This document shows, one piece after another, positions 11,108 through 57,822 of a DNA stretch of 64,000 bases. The translations under genes were made by a program, and so were the position numbers. Under the pieces are notes generated by a model. It did no database searches. It was not told the DNA's origin and saw only the letters and a program-made list of their open reading frames with translations. This DNA is from an uncultured Pseudomonadales bacterium (GTDB lineage Bacteria > Patescibacteriota > Microgenomatia > UBA1400 > PJMF01), in the NCBI GenBank assembly GCA_964502565.1, contig CAZCXA010000001.1:3806-67805 (forward strand), given 5' to 3'. Every line of letters starts with the position of its first letter. Position 1 is the stretch's first letter.

Positions 11108-12979
11108 TTAACTGCTAAATCTTGCGTAAACCCTTCTCACTCCAGAACCAATTGATTTTTCTTTAAAAATCTCGATCTTATGGATCTTGCCGGTTGAGCT
11201 AACATGAGGACCCCCGCATAACTCTTTTGAGATAGGCTTATCTTGACCAATCTCATACACATCTACTTGGTCAGGATAGCGTTCAACAAAAAACGCCAAA
11301 GCTCCGGATTGTAATGCGTCTTGTTTTAGCATCTGTTTTTTTTGAACAGGCAAATCTAGCGCGATCCATTGATTAACTAAGTCTTGAACCTGCTGAACCT
11401 CTTGTTTGGTTAAGGCAGAGCTGTGAGAAAAATCAAATCTCAAACAATCCTGAGTAATTTGCGATCCTTTTTGCTGGACATGGTCACCCAACACCTGCCT
11501 TAAAGCAGTGTGTAATAAGTGAGTGGCAGTGTGATAAGCCGTGGTAGTATCAGAGTTGTCAGCTAAGCCACCCTGAAACTTTTGCGAGGCGCCAGTTTTT
11601 GACAACTTGCTATGCTTGGCTTGAGCTGTAACAAACTCCTGTCGCAAATTTTCCTCAAGAGTAATATTGTTTTGCTGAGCTTCTTCAATGGTTAGCTCAA
11701 ACGGAAAGCCATAGGTTTGGTACAAATCATACGCCATCTCGCCGGTTAAAACTTTATTATCAGCAAAAATCTTGTTAAGTCTTTTTAATCCTTTGCCAAG
11801 TGTTTTTTTAAATTTTTCAACTTCTTGATGAATTAAGGTTTCAATAGCCAACTGATCTTGCTTTAATAAAACATTGGCTTGGGTATAAATCTCGGCCACC
11901 ACAGGCACTAAAGATAATAAGAACTCAGAATCTTCAAAAAGATGCTGACTGTATCTAACGGCTCGTCTAATTAAACGCCTCACTAAGTAGCCCTGATCCT
12001 TGTTACTAGGTTTAACCCCATCATTAATTAACCAAACAGCTGCCTTGATGTGATCAGCAATGATGCGAAAGTTTGCTGGGCTATTGGCATATTCTTGATT
12101 TGTTTCTTGTTCAATTTTTCGAATAATTGGTAGAAATAAATCGGTTTGAAACACATCAGGCTGATGATGACTGGCAGCTAAAATCCTTTCCAAACCTCCT
12201 CCAAAATCAATATTTTTCTGAGGCAGGTCCTTAAACCCGGTTGCTGTTTTTTGATACTGCATAAAAACGCTGTTACCGATCTCTAAAAATCTGCCACAGT
12301 CACAGTTAACATGGCAAGGTTGATCAGCAAACTTGGAGTTTTCATGAAACTTAAACTCGGCTCCAAAATCATAAAACACCTCGCTGTCAGGACCACCGGG
12401 TTCACCAACCGGCATCTCATCAGGATCGCCACTGCGAGACCACCAGTTTTTATCAGCCGAGTAGTAAAAAATGCGATTGTCATTTAAACCTTCTTGGTAG
12501 GGATTTTTTCCAACCCCGGCGGTGACACCTTTACTAGCAAACAACTCCTGCCAAATCTTTACCGACTCCTCATCTGCATCAACTTGATATTTATCACTAC
12601 CAGCAAAAACAGTCACACACAACCTTTCAACAGGCAAACCAACTTCCTCAACTAGAAACTTGAAAAACCAAGTTAACTGCTCTGTTTTAAAATAATCACC
12701 AAATGACCAGTTGCCCAACATCTCAAAAAAAGTAGTGTGGCGATTGTCACCCACTTCTTCAATATCAAGCGCTCGAAAACAACGCTGAGAGTTAACAACT
12801 CTTTTTCCCTGAGGATGATCTGCTCCTAGCAGATATGGCATCATCGGTTGCATGCCTGCGGTGGTAAAAAGGGTACTGGGATCATTTTCAGGCACCAACA
12901 AAGATGAAGGCACAACAACATGGTCAAGGTTTTTAAAATAAGTTAGGTATTTTTGTCGAAGCTGATTTGAGCTGAGCAC
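11108..12979 (-). CDS. alaS: Alanine--tRNA ligase, short form (catalytic + tRNA-binding + editing domains; C-Ala domain absent)
   Basis: FTTAGMQP, HTTFFEMLGNWSFGDYFK class-II AlaRS signatures; editing-domain HxxxH...CGGPHV present; only 623 aa. Confidence 0.93.
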   Translation of the reverse strand: MLSSNQLRQKYLTYFKNLDHVVVPSSLLVPENDPSTLFTTAGMQPMMPYLLGADHPQGKRVVNSQRCFRALDIEEVGDNRHTTFFEMLGNWSFGDYFKTEQLTWFFKFLVEEVGLPVERLCVTVFAGSDKYQVDADEESVKIWQELFASKGVTAGVGKNPYQEGLNDNRIFYYSADKNWWSRSGDPDEMPVGEPGGPDSEVFYDFGAEFKFHENSKFADQPCHVNCDCGRFLEIGNSVFMQYQKTATGFKDLPQKNIDFGGGLERILAASHHQPDVFQTDLFLPIIRKIEQETNQEYANSPANFRIIADHIKAAVWLINDGVKPSNKDQGYLVRRLIRRAVRYSQHLFEDSEFLLSLVPVVAEIYTQANVLLKQDQLAIETLIHQEVEKFKKTLGKGLKRLNKIFADNKVLTGEMAYDLYQTYGFPFELTIEEAQQNNITLEENLRQEFVTAQAKHSKLSKTGASQKFQGGLADNSDTTTAYHTATHLLHTALRQVLGDHVQQKGSQITQDCLRFDFSHSSALTKQEVQQVQDLVNQWIALDLPVQKKQMLKQDALQSGALAFFVERYPDQVDVYEIGQDKPISKELCGGPHVSSTGKIHKIEIFKEKSIGSGVRRVYARFSS

Positions 12980-16336: not shown

Positions 16337-16984
16337 ATGGGTAACTCTAACTTGACTGAGAAATTCTTAAACTTGATTGTTCCGCCATATTGCGTGTGTT
16401 GTTCTAAAAATGGTCGGTTGTTATGCCATCGGTGTTATCAACTTATTCATTTTAATGCTCAACCTGCCAACAACAATCTTTTTAGCCAAGAATTTCTAGA
16501 TCAGGCCTTAAGCTTGGCTGTTTATCAACCGCCAATCTCTGATTTAATTAAAAGTTTAAAATATCAACACGTTAAAAAGATTGGAGTAGTGCTCGCAGAG
16601 CTACTTTATAACCACTTACAGTTGCCAAAGTGTGATCTAATCACTTGGGCACCGATCTCCAAAAAAAGATTAAATGAGAGAGGTTTTAACCAAGCACAGA
16701 TGATCGGGGAAGGCTTGGGTAGGATTATGAAAACTCCAACCAAAACTGTGCTTAAAAAAGTAAAACATACCTCAAAACAAGCAAAAAGTAGTTTTGCTCA
16801 AAGACTGGCAAATTTACAAGATACTTTTGAGGTTGAGGCAAGCTTTCAGCATTGTCTTAAAAATAAAACCGTGATGATTGTTGATGATGTCCTGAGCACA
16901 GGCAGTACCTTAAACGAGTGTGCCCGGATGCTAAAAATGGCTGGAGTAAAAGTAGTGGTTGGCGTGGCAGTGGCAAGAAGCTAA
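16337..16984 (+). CDS. comFC: ComF-family phosphoribosyltransferase (competence protein ComFC-like)
   Basis: N-terminal C-x2-C...C-x2-C zinc ribbon (CVCC...CHRC) and C-terminal PRTase motif VMIVDDVLSTGSTL. Confidence 0.8.
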   Translation: MGNSNLTEKFLNLIVPPYCVCCSKNGRLLCHRCYQLIHFNAQPANNNLFSQEFLDQALSLAVYQPPISDLIKSLKYQHVKKIGVVLAELLYNHLQLPKCDLITWAPISKKRLNERGFNQAQMIGEGLGRIMKTPTKTVLKKVKHTSKQAKSSFAQRLANLQDTFEVEASFQHCLKNKTVMIVDDVLSTGSTLNECARMLKMAGVKVVVGVAVARS

Positions 16985-17057
16985 ACCTGATTACAGTGGC
17001 AGTGGCAAGAAGCTAAACCTGATTACAGTGGCAGTGGCAAGAAGCTAAAGCTGATTG
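16964..17057. repeat. 32-bp tandem repeat, ~3 copies, overlapping the comF stop codon
   Basis: gtggcagtggcaagaagctaaacctgattaca x2 (16964-16995, 16996-17027) plus degenerate third copy 17028-17057 (ctaaaGctgattGca). Confidence 0.85.
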
Positions 17058-17083
17058 CAGATGAAATTTACAAAGAAAAGACG

Positions 17084-17089
17084 TATAAT
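17084..17089 (+). promoter_or_regulatory. Candidate -10 box (TATAAT) for ssrA
   Basis: Perfect TATAAT 12 nt upstream of tmRNA 5' end; no good -35 at 17-bp spacing seen. Confidence 0.3.
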
Positions 17090-17100
17090 ACATAAGTTGC

Positions 17101-17496
17101 GGGGATGTATTGCTTTGACGTAACAGCTCTTTAACAACTGCAGACCATCTTTGATCAAAAGATGTTAAACAGGATCAAAAAAACATCTGTCAACAAAATC
17201 GTTAACAGAATAGCACAAGGTGTCCAAAGTTTCTTTGGCACCACTGCTCCTGCTTACGCCTACGCGTAATTAGGCATCTATTAGTTTCTTCTCACTGATG
17301 AGAGCTGATAGGTGAAAACCCAGTCAGTGTGACAACTTACTTGCCTCATATTGCAAGTAAGTCTAAGACAAAAAAATATGGCTGTGAAAAAAAAGTTTGT
17401 TTGTTCACTTTTTTCACTTGCGCAAAAACAAACTATGTCTGTAGTGGTTGTTGACTAGTTAGTTAGCGGACAGGGGTTCATTACCCCTCATCTCCA
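17101..17496 (+). ncRNA. ssrA: tmRNA (SsrA), ~396 nt, tag ORF ending ...APAYAYA-UAA
   Basis: 5' GGGGAUGUAUUGCUUUGACG (compare E. coli GGGGCUGAUUCUGGAUUCGACGGG); 3' GGACAGGGGUUCAUUACCCCUCAUCUCCA (compare GGACGCGGGUUCAACUCCCGCCAGCUCCACCA); acceptor stem GGGGAUG/CAUCUCC contains the G3-U70 alanine identity pair; T-arm AGGGG-UUCAUUA-CCCCU; in-frame GCU CCU GCU UAC GCC UAC GCG UAA at 17246-17269. Confidence 0.85.
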
Positions 17497-17556
17497 CAAA
17501 TTATTACTCAGTTTAAGCCTGTTCTTCTTCTGTGTCCTCCGTGTTAAAATTGCATC

Positions 17557-18315
17557 ATGTCAATAGCTCTCCCTTTAAACACCCTCTTGCTGTCTGCTGG
17601 TTATGGCACTCGTCTTAAAAAAATAGGTGAGCGCACGCCTAAAGGCTTGTTTAAGAACAGCAAAAATATATCAATCACTGACATGATTATTGGCTCTTTG
17701 CAAAAAGTTCCACAAGTTGAAGATTGGGCTTTGGTCTCAAACAACCGTTTTTTTCATAACTATCAAGATTATTTTGCTCAAAACTACCCAGGATTAAAGA
17801 TCAAGATGCTCAATGATGGCACTGATGATCCTAAGGAGAGACTGGGCTCACTTGGGGATCTAGTTTTTGTCCTAAATAAATTAAGTTGGTGGGATAAATC
17901 AATCTTGGTTTTAGCCAGTGACCGTACTCCCGAGAACATCATTCCTCATCTAGTGAAGTTATATAATCAACATCCTGATTGTTTTATTACCTGTGTTACT
18001 CGCCAGAGCAAAAAAATGATCGCCAATCGTTATGGTTGCGCTCAACTTGGTCAAGATCAAAAAATCTTAAGTTTTGAAGAAAAGCCAGCTCAGCCAAAAA
18101 GCAATTATCAAGCTATTCCATTTTATATTTTTCCACAAAAATCCTTAAGTTTGCTTAAAAAATATTATCAAGCCGGTAAAAATATGGACTCGCCAGGTAA
18201 TATCATCCCCTGGCTTTTGCAACACAACTTTCCGGTTTATGCTCACATCACTCAAAAAACCTCGATCGATATTGGGAACTTAGAGGATTTAAAAAAATTT
18301 AAAAGCGCAAGATAG
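17557..18315 (+). CDS. Sugar-phosphate nucleotidyltransferase (NTP_transferase family)
   Basis: N-terminal LSAGYGTRL (G-x-G-T-R-L) signature of sugar-1-phosphate nucleotidyltransferases. Confidence 0.7.
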   Translation: MSIALPLNTLLLSAGYGTRLKKIGERTPKGLFKNSKNISITDMIIGSLQKVPQVEDWALVSNNRFFHNYQDYFAQNYPGLKIKMLNDGTDDPKERLGSLGDLVFVLNKLSWWDKSILVLASDRTPENIIPHLVKLYNQHPDCFITCVTRQSKKMIANRYGCAQLGQDQKILSFEEKPAQPKSNYQAIPFYIFPQKSLSLLKKYYQAGKNMDSPGNIIPWLLQHNFPVYAHITQKTSIDIGNLEDLKKFKSAR

Positions 18316-22364: not shown

Positions 22365-24200
22365 CTAATGTATTTCTGATCTTCTATCTCTTAAAAAAGA
22401 CCGCCAGTCTTCAACTAAACCCACGATTACGGAAAACGGGGCGTCAACCAAGGCTGTGAAAAAAACGCTGACAATATTATATTCTTTCCATTTAGCTGAG
22501 AGCCACTGCCCAACCTGAGCCAAAGGCAGATAAAAGAAATCAACCATCATGGTTAAAATACCCCCACTCTCTTGAATAGTCAGCTCTTGTGCTTTATGTC
22601 TAATAACCATGGCAGCAGAAACCACCATGGCCACGTTTACAACATCAACATAAATTGATGTCCAGGGCACTCCAGCTACTTTAAATACTAAGTAAACTGC
22701 ATAAGCTCCGACCAAGCCTCCAAACAAACTTATAAGACTAAAGATAAAGTCTAAAAACCAGTTTCTTTTTTTAACCAGGTTAATCTCAAACTCATCTTTT
22801 TCATCACTCTTTAAGATAACCTTCAGAATCTCCTCTTTAACTCTGCCAAGATTTTCTTTTTTTGGAGGCTGAATCGTGATAACTAAGACAAACATTAATG
22901 AGGACGGGATCGCGAGGTCAATAAATAAAGCAAACAGGCTAAAACCTTCTCCAACAAACTCTGCCACCGGACCCTCAAAAATAATAAAACTCACTACGCC
23001 CGCAACAAAGATTGATAAAGTTGAATAAACTGCTGACCGATAAAGCCTGCTTTTTAAAGTTGATAAACGACGGTTGTAAGCCAGAGTAATAGTCTCAAAC
23101 AACTGTTTTTTATCCTTAAGTTTTGGCTCGATTGATTCTGGATCTTCTTCTAACTCCTTAACAACATCGCCAAATATTAAAAAAGCTGCATCTTGTCTTT
23201 CGCAAATCTTAAAAAACTCTTTACCATACTTATGTTCTAGATCTGAACTGATCTGCTTTTGAACTTGATCGATATTTTCCGCAAAATTTTTTACAAACTC
23301 CTGATCATCCTCAAACCACTGAGGATAATGATATTTAATAAGATTGTAACTGATGATTGGGGAGTCAAGTGAAAATAATGCACGATGTGCCGCGACATAT
23401 GTTTGAACTAAAACCTCCTCATCAGACATAAAATTTTTCGGCGTAACCTTTAAACTGTTGTAAATTGAAAAAGTCATAAAATTAATCAGGGCGTTTTCCT
23501 TAAAAGCCGGTTCTAAAATCTCCTCGATTTCACAGGCTGCAATTTCGAGAATCCAGTTATAAAAATTAACCTTTTCTTTTAGATTAGCCTTGCGTTTTTT
23601 TCGCTCGCTCTTGTTTAAATCAGATGTAATCTCAGACAGATAACGCTTGCCTGAAAATGGTGAGTTGTTAATTATGTAAATATATTTTGCCAAGCTTTGT
23701 TTTGCGAGCGGAATCTTGTTTTTTGAGATCTGTTTGTTGGAAAAATAACCACTTCTAACCATTTCCTGCACTAAGGGCCCGGTGATTATTTCTGCATCTA
23801 AAGAACTCTGACCAATGCCTGATATTTCTGAAAGCAAGGTTCTTTTTAAGATCCTCTCAATAGCAGAGCGACGAATTAAGTTTTCTTCTTTCCAATCAAT
23901 AACTCTTCGAACCTTTTCATATACTTTTGCTAACTTCGCAGCAAACTCATCACTTTCTATTGGAGAAACCACCGGCTTTTGTTGATACAAAATACCTTGA
24001 ACATAATCTAATAAAAATTGATTGGTTAAATCGTTAAGTTCATATTGAGAAGACAGCTCAACTTGATTAAGGATTGATTTCGACATAATAGGAGACGAAC
24101 TAGACTTAGCCTGGTTTTCTTGGCTTGATTGTTCTACTGACTGATCTGTCTCATTATTAAGTTGGTCTGAACTTGAAACATTAGTCTGAGTTTGAGTCAT
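22365..24200 (-). CDS. Hypothetical 611-aa protein: ~380-aa cytoplasmic N-domain + C-terminal multi-TM region
   Basis: No family recognised by eye; Ser/Gln/Glu-rich N-terminus; at least four hydrophobic helices in last 230 aa. Confidence 0.5.
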   Translation of the reverse strand: MTQTQTNVSSSDQLNNETDQSVEQSSQENQAKSSSSPIMSKSILNQVELSSQYELNDLTNQFLLDYVQGILYQQKPVVSPIESDEFAAKLAKVYEKVRRVIDWKEENLIRRSAIERILKRTLLSEISGIGQSSLDAEIITGPLVQEMVRSGYFSNKQISKNKIPLAKQSLAKYIYIINNSPFSGKRYLSEITSDLNKSERKKRKANLKEKVNFYNWILEIAACEIEEILEPAFKENALINFMTFSIYNSLKVTPKNFMSDEEVLVQTYVAAHRALFSLDSPIISYNLIKYHYPQWFEDDQEFVKNFAENIDQVQKQISSDLEHKYGKEFFKICERQDAAFLIFGDVVKELEEDPESIEPKLKDKKQLFETITLAYNRRLSTLKSRLYRSAVYSTLSIFVAGVVSFIIFEGPVAEFVGEGFSLFALFIDLAIPSSLMFVLVITIQPPKKENLGRVKEEILKVILKSDEKDEFEINLVKKRNWFLDFIFSLISLFGGLVGAYAVYLVFKVAGVPWTSIYVDVVNVAMVVSAAMVIRHKAQELTIQESGGILTMMVDFFYLPLAQVGQWLSAKWKEYNIVSVFFTALVDAPFSVIVGLVEDWRSFLRDRRSEIH

Positions 24201-24301: not shown

Positions 24302-25369
24302 CTAATATTTGGGTAAAAATATTTCCCTATTTTCTCGAGTAATAATCACTTTATTAAAACCTCTTTCCACGATAATTCTAGCTGCTTTGCGTACTGCTCC
24401 TTGCAAGGTTCTTTGCAAGGTTCTAATGCCAGCATCAAAACCCAAAGGTCTAATGACATTTGGCCAGACATCTGCCTTAATAATAAGCTGCCCAGGTTTT
24501 AGCCCGGCTTGTTTTAATAAATCTGGTAAAACATATTTTTGAGCTATCACTAACTTTTCATGATCTGTGTACGAAGGCATATCAATCCTTTCCACACGAT
24601 CTAACACGGCTGTTGGCAATCTGACCGTGTTGTTAGCAGTGGCCAGAAAAATTGCCTTACTTAAGTTAACTGGATAGTCAATATATGAATCGGTAAACGC
24701 ATGATTTTGGGCTGGATCTAACAACTCAATCAGTACACCCATTATCTCCTGGTTAGCCTCATCACTAGCACGATCAACCTCATCCAATAAAACAACAGGA
24801 TTTTCAACATGTGACTCGCATAATCCTTTTATAACCCTACCTGGTTCACTACCTAAAACTAGCCTGGAACTACCACGTATTTCTTTAGCTGAACCCATGC
24901 CTCCAAACGGAATACGCACCAACGGTCTGTTTAGAGCCTCAGCTAGAGCATAACCAAAAGTAGTCTTACCAGTACCAACTAAACCGACCAGCAACAAGAT
25001 TGGTGCACTAAAATCTTCTTGCTGAAAATTTTGTTGTCTTAACTTTAAAACAGAGATATATTCCAAGAACCGATTTTTAATCTCCTCCATCCCATAATGG
25101 TGTTTGTCAAAAATACTCTTTGCTTCTTTAATATCAAGTCTGTCAATTGCTTTTTCTCCCCATGGCAAGCGCAAAACCCAATCAATATACTTGCTAACCG
25201 TTTCATATTTCACATCATAACTGCCCAGTTCTACACTACGTTTTAAAGCAATAATATCTTTTTTTACCTTACGCCTTAACTCGTCAGGCATCTTGGCGTT
25301 CTCTGCTTTTTTTTGCAGTTCCTCGATCTCATCCTGAAGAACTTGTTGATAATTGTTGGCTTGAGTCAT
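24302..25369 (-). CDS. LonA-type AAA+ ATPase module without N-terminal LON domain and without protease domain
   Basis: Aligns by eye to E. coli Lon ~res 230-590: coiled-coil LRLPWGEK...LDIKEAKSIFDKHHYGMEEIKNRFLEYISV, Walker A LVGLVGTGKTT, Walker B VVLLDEVDR, sensor-1 FLATANN, LDRVERI; ORF ends where the Lon protease domain (S-K dyad) would start. Confidence 0.75.
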   Translation of the reverse strand: MTQANNYQQVLQDEIEELQKKAENAKMPDELRRKVKKDIIALKRSVELGSYDVKYETVSKYIDWVLRLPWGEKAIDRLDIKEAKSIFDKHHYGMEEIKNRFLEYISVLKLRQQNFQQEDFSAPILLLVGLVGTGKTTFGYALAEALNRPLVRIPFGGMGSAKEIRGSSRLVLGSEPGRVIKGLCESHVENPVVLLDEVDRASDEANQEIMGVLIELLDPAQNHAFTDSYIDYPVNLSKAIFLATANNTVRLPTAVLDRVERIDMPSYTDHEKLVIAQKYVLPDLLKQAGLKPGQLIIKADVWPNVIRPLGFDAGIRTLQRTLQGAVRKAARIIVERGFNKVIITRENREIFLPKY

Positions 25370-52606: not shown

Positions 52607-54619
52607 TTACTTTATCTTGGCAAAACCTATGATCTTCTCAAACTGCTCACCATCCAAGGTTTCAAGTTCTAGTAACTTTTCTGCGACCTTGTCTAGTTCT
52701 GCCTCATATTTTCTCAAAAAATCCTCACTCTTTTTTAAAGCCTGACTAATGATCTTTTGGATCTCGATATCAACCTTTTCTTGAAGTTGATCTGAGATCT
52801 TAAACGGCTCACCCCACATCTTGTCATAATCTGAGTTCTCATATTGAGGTCCAAAGTTCATCGGCCCTAAACTACTCATGCCATACTCAACTACCATTGC
52901 TCTCGCAATGCGAGTCGCTCGTTCAATATCACTACTGGCACCAATCGTTTGCTCATTAAACTTGATTAACTCTGCAGCTCTACCGCCTAACATCTCAACA
53001 ATCTTGCCCTCTAATTCTGATTTAGTGGTTTGTAGTTTATCTCTTTCTGGTGGAGTAAAGGTGTATCCTAAAGCTCGGCCTCGTGACACGATCGAGATTC
53101 GGTGCACTGGATCTGAAAACGGCTGGACATGGGCTAAAACCGCGTGACCAGCTTCATGATAAGCAGTCATCTTGCGCTCAAGTTCATTTTGTAAACGCTT
53201 TTTGCTTGGACCCAGTTTAACCTTTAAAGAAGCTTCCTCAATATCTTCCATCACAATCTCACTGCGACCTTCGCGCGCAATCCTGATAGCAGCCTCGTTA
53301 AGCATATTTTCCAGATCAGCTCCAGAAAAACCAACCGTGCTTTTGGCAATATTGGCTAAGCTTAAATCAGAAGCCATTGGCTTGCCTTTGACATGAATTT
53401 TTATGATAAACTTTCTTTCTTCTAAATCTGGTAGATCAACCTGTACTCGACGATCAAACCTACCGGGGCGAATCAAGGCTGAATCTAGTAGTTCTCCTCG
53501 GTTTGTGGCAGCCATGACAATCACGTTGTCATTGGTTTCAAAGCCATCCATCTCAACCAAGATTTGATTCAAGGTTTGCTCTCGTTCATTATGGCCGCCG
53601 GCATAACCCATACCGCGCGTGCGCCCAATCGCATCAATCTCGTCAATAAAAATAATAGAAGGAGCCAATTTTTTGGCTGTATCAAAAAGATCGCGCACGC
53701 GCGAGGCACCTACTCCAACCAACATCTCCATAAACTCAGAACCAGCAATCGATAAAAACTGGACATTCGCCTCTCCTGCCACAGCTCTGGCAAGAAGAGT
53801 CTTACCTGTTCCCGAAGGACCAACCAAGAGCACGCCTTTGGGAGTTCTTGCCCCAACCTTTAAATATTTATCAGGATGTTTTAAGAAGTCAACAATCTCT
53901 TGCAGTTCATTTTTAGCTTCATCCATGCCTCCAACATCATCAAACTTGATATCCTGTTTGCCCTTAATAAAAACTTTTGCTTTAGACTGACTAAAACCTA
54001 ACAAACCATCCTGTGCGCCTTTAGCCTGACGCATAATTAGCGCAAAAACTACGATAATGGCTAACAATGGTAAGAGGTTTAATACTAGTTCCCAAAACAT
54101 TTGTCCCAGGCTTACATCCTCAACTAACAAATCAACCTCTGTAATATCTAATCCTGATGTGCTTAATACGGTTAACACCTCTTGATCGGTTTCCTTGAGG
54201 GCAATCTTACGCTCTTCATCTTTATACAAAATCCTGAGCTCGTTGCCAGCCACCATGATCTTGTCCACCTTTTCCTCTCTCACGTCTCTCACCAACTGGC
54301 TGAGGCTGATGGTTTCAACGCCTCCAGTAAATAAAGAGATTAAAAACGGTAAAAATAAAAATATCAAGATGATATAAACAAGACCTTTCTTAAAAAATTT
54401 ATTCAGATCAACCTTAAACTCAAACTGTTTAATATATTTTTGATCTTTTCTTTCCTTAAGATATTTTTTATCTTTATTAGGAGTATTATTTTTCGTTTTT
54501 ACATCTTTTTCAGGCAATTTTTTACCTTTTAGAAACTTAAACTGTTGCTTGTTTAACTGATCTTTTGGTGAGTTGGAGTTGTTCTTTGTCATATGATTCT
54601 TGAGCTTCTGTTTTAGCAA
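52607..54619 (-). CDS. ftsH: ATP-dependent zinc metalloprotease FtsH with Lys-rich N-terminal extension
   Basis: Walker [19 protein letters not shown] zinc motif; ~75-aa K-rich segment before first TM. Confidence 0.95.
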
Positions 54620-55898: not shown

Positions 55899-56768
55899 TT
55901 ACAGTTCTTCAATCTCAATTTCAGGAGAAATTTCTTGATGATCGTCGATTAGCTGTAAATATTTTTCAGTAGTAGTGATACGTTTGTGACCTACTAACTG
56001 TGATACATATACCAAAGGCGTGCCAGCTCTCAACTGCTCAACAATGAAGGTGTTGCGCAGATCATTAACAATAGCATCCTGAATACCAGCAAGCTTAAAA
56101 TGACGATTAATGGCTGCTCTGATATTTCTTACTAAAAAGGGACGGCAAGTCTTGGTTAAAAAGATGCATTTTTCCTTAGCTCTAGGACGTACTTTTAAAT
56201 AATCCATCAATGCTTGTTTAGCTGCTTTATTCAATGGTACTTTTCGACCACCTCGGCTCTTATAGGGTTGAACTTGAATAATACCTCTTTCCAGATCTAC
56301 ATCATCGGTTTTTAGGTTTGCTAACTCACTAATGCGCATTCCTGTTTGCAAAAGTAACTCTACCACAGCAAAAATTCTAACATCTGACCGACAAGCATCT
56401 CGCAGAGCTCGGTACTCCATTTTTGATAAAAAACGAGATGGTTTTTGCTCGAATTTAGGATGTGAAATTTCAGAGGCAGGATTGTTCTCAACTAAACCTT
56501 CGTTCTCTAAAAATCTAAAAAAAGATTTTATCGAGTTGATTTTTCTAGAGATCGATTTATTAGCATAGCGCCGACTCTTTAGTAGCTCCTTAAATTGATT
56601 GATATCTTCATGAGTAACTTCCGAAGCCAGTTCCTTCCCTTGATCTAGAGCATACTCAGCCAACTGTTCTAAGTCTTTAACATAAGCAATCACTGTAGCC
56701 GTGGCCTTGCCGTTTGACTCTAAATATTGACGATATTTTTGTTGTGCAACTGTTAGAGAAATAGCCAT
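55899..56768 (-). CDS. Tyrosine site-specific recombinase (XerC/XerD-like)
   Basis: Core-binding + catalytic domains; R...HxxR (LVGHKRIT)...Y (EKYLQL) catalytic residues; 289 aa without phage-type arm-binding domain. Confidence 0.85.
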   Translation of the reverse strand: MAISLTVAQQKYRQYLESNGKATATVIAYVKDLEQLAEYALDQGKELASEVTHEDINQFKELLKSRRYANKSISRKINSIKSFFRFLENEGLVENNPASEISHPKFEQKPSRFLSKMEYRALRDACRSDVRIFAVVELLLQTGMRISELANLKTDDVDLERGIIQVQPYKSRGGRKVPLNKAAKQALMDYLKVRPRAKEKCIFLTKTCRPFLVRNIRAAINRHFKLAGIQDAIVNDLRNTFIVEQLRAGTPLVYVSQLVGHKRITTTEKYLQLIDDHQEISPEIEIEEL

Positions 56769-56921
56769 ACTAGAATCTTCCTAATGTGTAAATATAATAT
56801 AATGAGTAGATAGAAAAGTATTAAATTGTGAAATTATTCCAATAATATTTATCTATAAGATATAAGCAACGTAGCTTATAATAACATAATATAGAAAATT
56901 TTCTAGAGTAAGATTTAATAG

Positions 56922-57284
56922 ATGAAGAACATAGTGTATCACCCCCTAGCTATTCTTATGACCACTGTTTTGGTAATTATTGCAATTTTTAGTCTACGCA
57001 ATAATCTAAAAAGGCTTTCCCTATCTCAAGAAAACTTAAAAAGTGCCCAACTGGCGTATGAAAAAGTAAAACAGGATACAGCAAAGGACAAGGCGTTATT
57101 AAACCAGTTTCAGCATCCTTTTGTTCAAGAAAAAATTACAAGAAATGAGTTGCTAAGACAGAAAAACAATGAAATATTGATCAAACTCCCTGATATTGTT
57201 CTTGAACAAAAAAAACAAGATCCGATCCCGCAAAAAACAGTTTTTGAACAGTGGAAAAAAGTGCTCGAGATAGGCAAGCAGTAA
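56922..57284 (+). CDS. FtsB/DivIC-like septum-formation initiator (TM + coiled coil)
   Basis: N-terminal TM then coiled-coil; size and architecture only. Confidence 0.35.
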   Translation: MKNIVYHPLAILMTTVLVIIAIFSLRNNLKRLSLSQENLKSAQLAYEKVKQDTAKDKALLNQFQHPFVQEKITRNELLRQKNNEILIKLPDIVLEQKKQDPIPQKTVFEQWKKVLEIGKQ

Positions 57285-57434
57285 AAAACTCCTTTATCAC
57301 ACAAAAACAGCCACAACCACCACAAGAAGAAAAGGTGGTGAAAAAATTAATATTTTTCACACTCCTTGTGAAAAATTGAAGAATCTTGAAAAACCTAAGA
57401 AGTATTTAACAAAGCTTCACTCTCTTAAAACTTG

Positions 57435-57508
57435 TAGCAGGGGTGAGACTTGAACTCACGACCTTCGGTTTATGAATCCGATGCTCTAACCAACTGAGCT
57501 ACCCTGCC
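57435..57508 (-). tRNA. tRNA with anticodon CAT (elongator Met or lysidine-Ile2 type)
   Basis: Minus strand GGCAGGGTAGCTCAGTTGGTTAGAGCATCGGATTCATAAACCGAAGGTCGTGAGTTCAAGTCTCACCCCTGCTA; cloverleaf with G1-U72, anticodon loop TTCATAA. Confidence 0.8.
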
Positions 57509-57682
57509 ATAAAAAATCACCTAAATCAATCTTGAAAAAAATATTGATAATTGATTTTAAAGAAAAAATGTATTTTATTTAAACAGACAGTTCAACTGAT
57601 GATTAACCAAAAAAATACCGTTGGTTGATTATACCAAATATTATCTTGTATAATAAACCTTTGAAACAACCCAATTCAACAA

Positions 57683-57751
57683 CGCGGGATAGTGTACGGT
57701 GCACGCAAGGCTCATAATCTTGCAGGCTAGGTTCGACTCCTAGTCCCGCAA
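57683..57751 (+). tRNA. Initiator-type tRNA-fMet (CAT) with compact D/anticodon region (69 nt)
   Basis: CGCGGGA...GGCTCATAATC...GGTTCGACTCC...TCCCGCAA closely parallels E. coli tRNA-fMet (CGCGGGG...GGCTCATAACC...GGTTCAAATCC...CCCCGCAA) including C1xA72 mismatch; D-stem GTGT/ACGC, 7-nt D-loop. Confidence 0.75.
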
Positions 57752-57822
57752 CAAATTTTTTTTGAAAAAAAATACTGACTGGTCAGTGATTAAATATTCC
57801 TCATTATTGAGCCTAAACTTAC

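Follow-up and report, generated by a model that had tools for sequence, protein, structure and literature searches.

A full-length one-piece tmRNA in an ORF-free interval

Does the gap in the window (the whole 64-kb stretch of DNA analysed here) that separates one protein-coding gene, ending at 16984, from the next, starting at 17557, encode a tmRNA, and if it does, which tag is read from it? A first-pass annotation had placed such an RNA at 17101–17496, in an interval of about 570 bp without open reading frames; the gap around the tmRNA measures 572 bp. When the whole window was searched against Rfam with cmscan, a complete, one-piece tmRNA was found at 17101–17496 on the forward strand, with the boundaries that had been proposed. 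The RF00023 match extends from 17101 to 17499 (+), reaches 91.2 bits (gathering score, 47; E = 3.9e-34), and spans model positions 1–374 of 374, so that it is both full length and above the gathering score. It brings the 5′ and 3′ ends of the RNA together in an acceptor/T-arm structure, and the two motifs on which the original identification had relied, GGGGAUGUAUUGCUUUGACG and GGACAGGGGUUCAUUACCCCUCAUCUCCA, lie at 17101–17120 and 17468–17496, respectively. Folding of the 399-nt RNA gives a z-score of −6.7 relative to shuffled sequences. In a search of 16900–17700 at a permissive E-value only tmRNA models matched, and the permuted-tmRNA model produced a partial, sub-threshold match (22.7 bits versus 47) over the 3′ end and the downstream flank.

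To place this sequence among its relatives, a DNA pattern derived from two invariant 5′ segments was used to collect 23 loci from GTDB representative genomes, and the comparison set consists of 23 distinct tmRNA sequences from the clade. We are highly confident that 17101–17496 is a chromosomal ssrA gene, encoding a four-pseudoknot, one-piece tmRNA of an uncultured member of the Patescibacteria (Microgenomates / Pacebacteria-Woesebacteria type). It is an ordinary housekeeping gene and a new sequence within an already known family, RF00023. A phage-borne or island-associated origin was considered and rejected, since a pattern search of viral contigs with two invariant 5′ segments returned no tmRNA copy and no second copy of the tmRNA 3′ end is found in the 64-kb window.

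Secondary structure and covariation

We wrote out the full structure, comprising P1, helix 2, PK1, helix 5, PK2–4 (both stems of each) and the T arm, and scored it on the 23-sequence alignment. Controls were obtained by sliding the 3′ partners by 1–3 columns and by 500 shuffles. The gene and its structural elements are located as follows.

17101–17496 (+): mature tmRNA (SsrA), matched by the full RF00023 model, with covariation across 23 tmRNAs; ends at discriminator A17496
17101–17107 (+): 5′ strand of the acceptor stem, GGGGAUG, paired with 17489–17495 (CAUCUCC); seven pairs invariant in 23/23
17108–17120 (+): D-loop analogue UAUUGCUUU, then the conserved GACG; U8, A9, G12, U15, G17, A18 and C19 invariant
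17146–17177 (+): pseudoknot 1; S1 17146–51/17159–64, S2 17152–56/17173–77
17254–17269 (+): helix 5; UUACGC, loop CUAC, GCGUAA; 83–87% of cells paired
17275–17329 (+): pseudoknot 2; S1 17275–84/17305–14, S2 17293–98/17324–29; contains CUGAUGAG
17335–17381 (+): pseudoknot 3; S1 17335–44/17353–62, S2 17346–51/17376–81
17384–17433 (+): pseudoknot 4; S1 17384–92/17409–17, S2 17395–402/17426–33
17472–17488 (+): T arm; 6-bp stem AGGGGU/ACCCCU, 5-nt loop UCAUU (17478–82)

Across the 23 sequences, 86.4% of cells in the alignment are standard pairs, compared with 38–47% when the 3′ partners are slid. Compensatory changes, affecting both sides of a pair, occur in 46 of 107 pairs, and none of the 500 shuffles reached the observed values. 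Support is distributed along the molecule. PK1 is an H-type pseudoknot in which S2 is 100% paired and carries compensatory changes in 3/5 pairs; in PK2 these affect 7 of the 10 pairs of S1, and S2 is 99% paired; in PK3 they are found in all 10 pairs of S1 and in 4/6 of S2; and in PK4 they occur in 8/9 pairs of S1. The T stem is 99% paired, with compensatory changes in 4/6 pairs. At the junction that closes helix 2a, formed by GAC and GGAC, residues G17, A18, C19, G368, G369, A370 and C371 are invariant. By comparison with these helices, a pairing of D-loop residues 11–14 with 365–368 that is predicted by minimum free energy showed no convincing covariation in the 23 sequences.

All of the architectural elements of a tmRNA are therefore present: acceptor stem, GAC/GGAC junction, helix 2, PK1, tag frame, helix 5, PK2–4 and T arm. 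The CUGAUGAG motif, which had been noted earlier and set aside as incidental, sits in PK2, within its 5′ strand and loop. A hammerhead or other ribozyme at this position was rejected, as only tmRNA models match in 16900–17700 and no ribozyme model in Rfam matches there even at E = 1.

The resume codon and the tag reading frame

At its 3′ end the tag frame reads ...GCU CCU GCU UAC GCC UAC GCG UAA, specifying ...APAYAYA followed by a stop codon that ends at 17269. In the upstream direction this frame stays open to 17135, which leaves 18 open codons before 17189, and the resume codon must therefore be placed by comparison. The relevant features are listed below.

17178–17188 (+): A-rich linker and frame-setting sequence ...ACAUCU (A−6, A−4, U−1)
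17186–17209 (+): hairpin around the resume codon, UCUGU.AAC paired with GUU.ACAGA; analogue of ‘helix m’
17189–17266 (+): putative tag reading frame; resume codon GUC (Val) at 17189–17191; encodes VNKIVNRIAQGVQSFFGTTAPAYAYA (26 aa)
17267–17269 (+): tag stop UAA, within the 3′ strand of helix 5; UAA in 23/23

Four residues, A83, A85, U88 and G89, which correspond to positions −6, −4, −1 and +1, are invariant in all 23 members. The column of G17189 is accordingly G throughout, and the codon that begins there is GUC in 12 sequences and GCA, GCC or GCU in 11. Frame 0 from this column is open in 23/23 for 26–37 codons, whereas the +1 frame is open in 3/23 and the +2 frame in 2/23; in locus L014, an in-frame stop lies just three codons upstream of the resume column. 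The predicted resume codon begins 11 nt after S2 of PK1. In E. coli the distance from PK1 is 12 nt, and the near-universal A86 at −4 acts as a frame-setting ruler (PMC2481249). The encoded residues are also conserved, at positions 2 (N in 14/23), 4 (hydrophobic in 21/23), 6 (S, T or N) and 8 (V or I in 19/23), and several third-position changes disrupt the local hairpin yet preserve the amino acid.

On the strength of the invariant −6/−4/−1/+1 residues, the open frame and the amino-acid conservation, we assign the tag from GUC 17189. Judged from these comparisons, the tag is likely to be VNKIVNRIAQGVQSFFGTTAPAYAYA, encoded by 17189–17266 and terminated at 17267–17269. The C-terminal ...APAYAYA reported by the first-pass annotation stands; the tag as a whole is longer (26 aa) than that annotation had implied, and the resume codon had been left unplaced. 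Val is unusual in this position: the resume codons in a 2005 survey specify Ala, Gly, Asp, Arg, Ser and Glu, and Val is not listed (PMC1168896).

Could translation resume further downstream on the same RNA, at GCA 17213 just past the hairpin? The product would be an 18-aa tag, AQGVQSFFGTTAPAYAYA, in the same frame and starting with Ala, and the most frequent resume codon is GCA (Ala) (PMC1168896). An A is present at −4 in the window (AGAAUA before GCA), but this residue is G in L011 and U in L016; several relatives have UAGUU followed by GCN here, resembling UAGUC before GCA in E. coli, although the motif is missing in more divergent members. There is no invariant column nearby, as opposed to four at the 17189 site in 23/23. 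The distance from PK1 would be 35 nt versus 12 nt in E. coli, a discrepancy that is softened by the report that the spacing between PK1 and U85 is not critical (PMC2481249). Finally, the eight intervening codons are conserved as amino acids, with third-position changes that break hairpin pairs. Resumption at GCA 17213 is improbable, and we rejected it on conservation in favor of GUC 17189.

A conserved hairpin around the resume codon

In most of the 23 members, nucleotides −3 to +2 pair with residues at approximately +14 to +18 (+17 to +21 in the window). The two strands covary, and the combinations CUGU/ACAG, CUGC/GCAG, GUUG/CAAC and UUGC/GCAA are all represented. All five pairs can form in 12/23 sequences and at least four of five in every sequence; among other 5-mers of the tag region, which serve as background, the corresponding values are 14% and 56%. 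The second position of the resume codon, U or C depending on whether it specifies Val or Ala, is always matched on the opposite strand by A/G or G, respectively.

Deviations in the tRNA-like domain

The G3-U70 pair, which had been reported in the acceptor stem from the window sequence, occupies pair 3 in 23/23 related tmRNAs, and the stem is followed by discriminator A17496. G3-U70 is the identity pair for alanyl-tRNA synthetase (AlaRS). The remainder of the domain is less conventional. The D-loop is 2 nt shorter than that of E. coli and has a single conserved G (G12) rather than GG. In the T arm, the window tmRNA lacks the canonical 7-nt loop (U54-U55-C56-R57-A58); the clade consensus is a 5-nt loop, UCAYN, in which U55 and C56 are invariant and position 58 is U or C, so that the 54-58 reverse-Hoogsteen pair cannot form. 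Positions 54 and 60 instead pair with each other, which extends the stem to 6 bp; they are GC in 14 sequences, UA in 6, UG in 2 and another combination or mismatched in 1. A58 is otherwise highly conserved in the tmRNA T loop (PMC1168896).

The T loops of the three tRNAs encoded in the window are normal (UUCAAGU and UUCGACU), and the change is therefore specific to the tmRNA: a tmRNA T loop can lose A58 while the tRNAs of the organism retain theirs. The T-arm deviation lies within a full-length family match and is no ground for excluding the RNA from the tmRNAs. At the 3′ end the CCA is not encoded, the gene running on into CAA (ACAA), and most relatives are alike in this respect; CCA addition after transcription is thus required.

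ARAGORN does not detect the clade tmRNAs

ARAGORN, which the first-pass annotation had named along with Rfam as a means of checking the gene, reported no tmRNA in the window or in four relatives tested, whereas Rfam/Infernal finds one in all of them. We read this outcome as a false negative of the tool. When single features were repaired in silico (a canonical T loop, GG in the D-loop, or a CCA end), detection was not restored, and the T loop alone was rejected as the cause on the basis of these edits. Detection requires a canonical resume context (AAUAGUC GCA) together with one of three further features, a canonical T loop, D-loop or LAA end. As no single repair suffices, the miss represents the sum of several small deviations: the T arm, the single-G D-loop, the Val resume codon and the non-LAA end jointly push the RNA below threshold. 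In the rescued call the tag starts at RNA position 89 (17189 in the window); since the edit had been introduced at that very site, the call lends the resume position no independent support. Annotation pipelines that rely on ARAGORN would report ‘no tmRNA’ for this lineage, and in reduced genomes such a blank could be mistaken for loss of trans-translation.

The same deviations might be taken as marks of a decaying, nonfunctional relic, in which the altered T and D loops no longer allow trans-translation. A58 is missing, one G stands in place of GG, the CCA is not encoded and ARAGORN is blind to the gene; nonetheless, the altered T arm is maintained with compensatory changes in 23 species and covariation extends to all helices. 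The tag frame is open in 23/23 with a conserved C-terminal motif, and the −10 box is conserved, features that are not retained by pseudogenes, and we consider decay very improbable. Of negligible probability, and rejected as incidental, is a conventional small-protein gene corresponding to the 35-codon ORF at 17162–17269 (MLNRIKKTSVNK...APAYAYA): it has an ATG start and 35 open codons, but the ATG lies within the invariant PK1 stem (AGAUGU), has no ribosome-binding context and, in 16/23 relatives, either is out of frame or runs into a stop, and the tmRNA model accounts for the whole region. A functional tmRNA with its tag frame starting at 17189 remains our reading of the locus.

Gene order, relatives and variation within the clade

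The window forms part of a 90-kb metagenomic contig (ENA ERZ4240871 NODE_230). The gene order around ssrA is alaS ... YqeY, tRNA-Val, a ComF-like PRTase, the gap, an NTP-transferase, FtsK and RNase J, and it is retained in relatives at 54–81% protein identity. The position of ssrA between the ComF-like PRTase and NTP-transferase genes is conserved; RF00023 scores 62–99 bits in the same syntenic gap of eight relatives, and every relative that keeps the gap has a match. Homologues of the NTP-transferase encoded downstream carry the labels Microgenomates, Pacebacteria or Patescibacteria. The pattern-matched loci are labelled Pacebacteria, Woesebacteria and Patescibacteria, together with many metagenome-assembled genomes titled ‘uncultured Pseudomonadales’. 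Specifically, L018, L020–L022, L026, L028, L030–L032, L034, L036 and L038 bear the title ‘uncultured Pseudomonadales bacterium’ or ‘Methylococcaceae bacterium’. On loci with a Patescibacteria-type tmRNA and gene order, these record titles appear to be taxonomically wrong.

Several relatives carry additional sequence in or next to the tmRNA. L011 (4137–4281), and also L012 and L028, has a 145-nt insertion that separates PK4 from the 3′ strand of helix 2; in L011 it forms one long stem on folding (−57 kcal/mol), matches no Rfam family and is smaller than a group I intron. In L013, a 25-nt insertion (GCCCTTAGGCCTACCCTTGTGGTAG) at about 1029–1053 occupies loop 3 of PK1. In the Pacebacteria relative L016, an 82-aa ORF with a GIY-YIG domain (2710–2958) lies between the tmRNA and the NTP-transferase gene and may be a homing-endonuclease remnant. 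Elsewhere in the window, a tyrosine recombinase of XerC/D or integrase type (55899–56768) adjoins two divergent tRNA-Met genes (region 55899–57752) at 57434–57508 (−) and 57683–57752 (+), the second of which scores only 45.7 bits.

Expression signals and a proposed mechanism

A candidate promoter precedes the gene.

17061–17089 (+): promoter-like site, ATGAAA-17 nt-TATAAT; 10/12 matches; 11 nt from the end of the −10 box to the mature 5′ end

Seven relatives likewise have a (C)TTATAATA(T) box ahead of the tmRNA, and its distance from the gene varies among them. The position of the −10 box, 11 nt before the mature 5′ end, suggests a short leader that would be removed by RNase P. Directly upstream of the promoter, at 16964–17060, a 32-bp unit (GTGGCAGTGGCAAGAAGCTAAACCTGATTACA) is present three times in tandem with 96% identity. 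The unit is a copy of the end of the ComF-like PRTase gene (16337–16984), comprising its final 21 nt and stop codon, and the tandem repeat is missing in the closest relatives L006, L007 and L009.

Established knowledge of trans-translation provides the steps of the mechanism that we propose. The tmRNA transcript would begin a few nucleotides upstream of the mature end, and RNase P would trim the 5′ leader. CCA would be added after transcription, and AlaRS, encoded at 11108–12979, would charge the tmRNA with alanine. The charged molecule would then enter stalled ribosomes with EF-Tu and SmpB, its assumed partner, and translation would resume at GUC 17189, four nucleotides past the invariant A. 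The appended sequence would consist of Ala plus VNKIVNRIAQGVQSFFGTTAPAYAYA, with release of the ribosome at UAA 17267, and the long, aromatic-Ala tag would mark the product for an AAA+ protease. The AlaRS gene, on the reverse strand a few kb from ssrA and in conserved synteny with it, has a GTG start and encodes a protein of only 623 aa; in relatives AlaRS keeps its catalytic and tRNA_SAD domains. By tblastn and Pfam searches, no SmpB was found in the window or the fetched loci.

The tag terminus and candidate proteases

The tag end had been described by the first-pass annotation as non-canonical. It does end in Y-A-Y-A, but that description is overstated, as the hydrophobic-X-Ala pattern is kept and the ends of related tags range from PAYAYA to YALAA. 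Ends seen in the clade include PAYAYA, PAYAFA, PSYAFA, PAYA, PAFA, PAYALA, PAQLYA, PAYLA and similar sequences, and the L037 tag ends in PSYALAA, with a canonical YALAA. The last residue is Ala in 22/23, and the penultimate residue is usually Y, F, L or V. As predicted from these frames, the hydrophobic-Ala terminus varies within the clade, and YAYA is one of its states, as is the canonical YALAA.

Which protease might read such a tag? The ORF at 52607–54619 (−) encodes a full FtsH (TIGR01241, 705 bits versus a cutoff of 600). The earlier remark that the Lon homologue of the window is atypical proved apt: the 355-aa product of ORF 24302–25369 (−) corresponds only to Lon residues ~251–570, the AAA+ and lid module, and has neither the N domain nor the S16 peptidase domain. 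Proteins of this type form a family of more than 120 clusters (351–368 aa, 68–100% identity) that is widespread in Patescibacteria, and the ORF product is predicted to be a conserved stand-alone Lon-like ATPase. Immediately downstream of its gene, at 22365–24200 (−), is a 611-aa predicted membrane protein with no Pfam or NCBIfam match; in relatives this protein (~600–620 aa) is conserved next to RNase J. Neither ClpP (tblastn) nor ClpX was found in the window or the fetched loci. E. coli FtsH and Lon are able to degrade SsrA-tagged proteins (cited in PMC8403727, PMC9382460). FtsH is the sole candidate tag protease seen complete in the window, and we infer that it could serve in this role. In the literature we found nothing specific on tmRNA in the Candidate Phyla Radiation or on the protease complement of Patescibacteria.

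A bolder proposal, which we consider doubtful, is that the clade has remodelled both ends of trans-translation, the tRNA-like elbow as well as the reading of the tag, with the latter assigned to a protease other than ClpXP. The elbow may have been altered by the 6-bp T stem with its pentaloop, the absence of a 54-58 pair and the single D-loop G; if so, it would need a co-adapted SmpB, EF-Tu or ribosome. For the long tag, in which the Val or Ala resume codon lies within the conserved hairpin and the end is aromatic-Ala, the reader may be FtsH, or the protease-less Lon-like AAA+ protein acting with a separate peptidase, and not ClpXP; this, if true, would be an independent parallel to the switch in Mollicutes.

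Comparison with known tmRNAs

These findings leave the general picture of the nature and role of tmRNA unchanged. What the comparative set adds is a fixed tag frame for the clade and an example of a Val resume codon. The RNA resembles E. coli SsrA in the G3-U70 pair of a 7-bp acceptor stem, the discriminator A, the GAC/GGAC junction and a long helix 2, and further in the location of PK1 before the resume codon, the A at −4, the stop codon in helix 5, the three downstream pseudoknots and a putative 5′ leader behind a TATAAT promoter-like site. It differs from E. coli SsrA in resuming at GUC (Val) rather than GCA, in a tag of 26 rather than 10 aa, and in an AYAYA rather than ALAA end. The T stem has 6 bp and its 5-nt loop lacks A58, a single G is present in a D-loop that is shorter by 2 nt, the CCA is not encoded, and smpB is not adjacent.

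The hairpin around the resume codon has a counterpart in the ‘helix m’ of E. coli, also a small hairpin, in which nucleotides before and at the resume codon pair with tag codons 5–7 (PMC1168896; PMC2481249). The E. coli helix is an energy-based prediction and is harmful if stabilised (A86C), whereas the clade hairpin persists with changed sequences. An over-stabilised ‘helix m’ has been suggested to block access (PMC2481249); in the clade hairpin, the A at −4 remains outside the stem. A parallel for the T arm is found in Dehalococcoides ethenogenes, where Burks et al. (2005) noted a possible sixth pair in the T stem (helix 12) (PMC1168896). The stem described here likewise has six pairs; unlike the D. 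ethenogenes stem as described in PMC1168896, the sixth pair of the clade covaries (GC, UA, UG) and A58 is lost.

For the tag, the closest comparison in our analysis is with the Mollicutes. Their NYAFA tags provide a precedent for an aromatic-Ala end (PMC9382460), and in organisms that lack ClpXP the long NYAFA tag has Lon as its main reader (PMC8403727, PMC9382460). In Mollicutes Lon degrades the tag, whereas the only Lon homologue seen in the clade is without a peptidase domain, and Lon-type degradation is thus not simply transferable from one group to the other. The lineages are unrelated, the portions of the tags that precede the terminus are dissimilar, and the ends are alike without being identical. 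The combination of a Mollicutes-like tag end with a peptidase-less Lon homologue raises the question of which protease clears tagged proteins in Patescibacteria. In M. pneumoniae and Mesoplasma florum, as in the clade, tags are long (27 aa in M. pneumoniae and 26–37 aa here), and in both groups reduced genomes are accompanied by an aromatic-Ala-aromatic-Ala terminus, represented by NYAFA in the Mollicutes and by PAYAYA, PAYAFA and PSYAFA in the clade.
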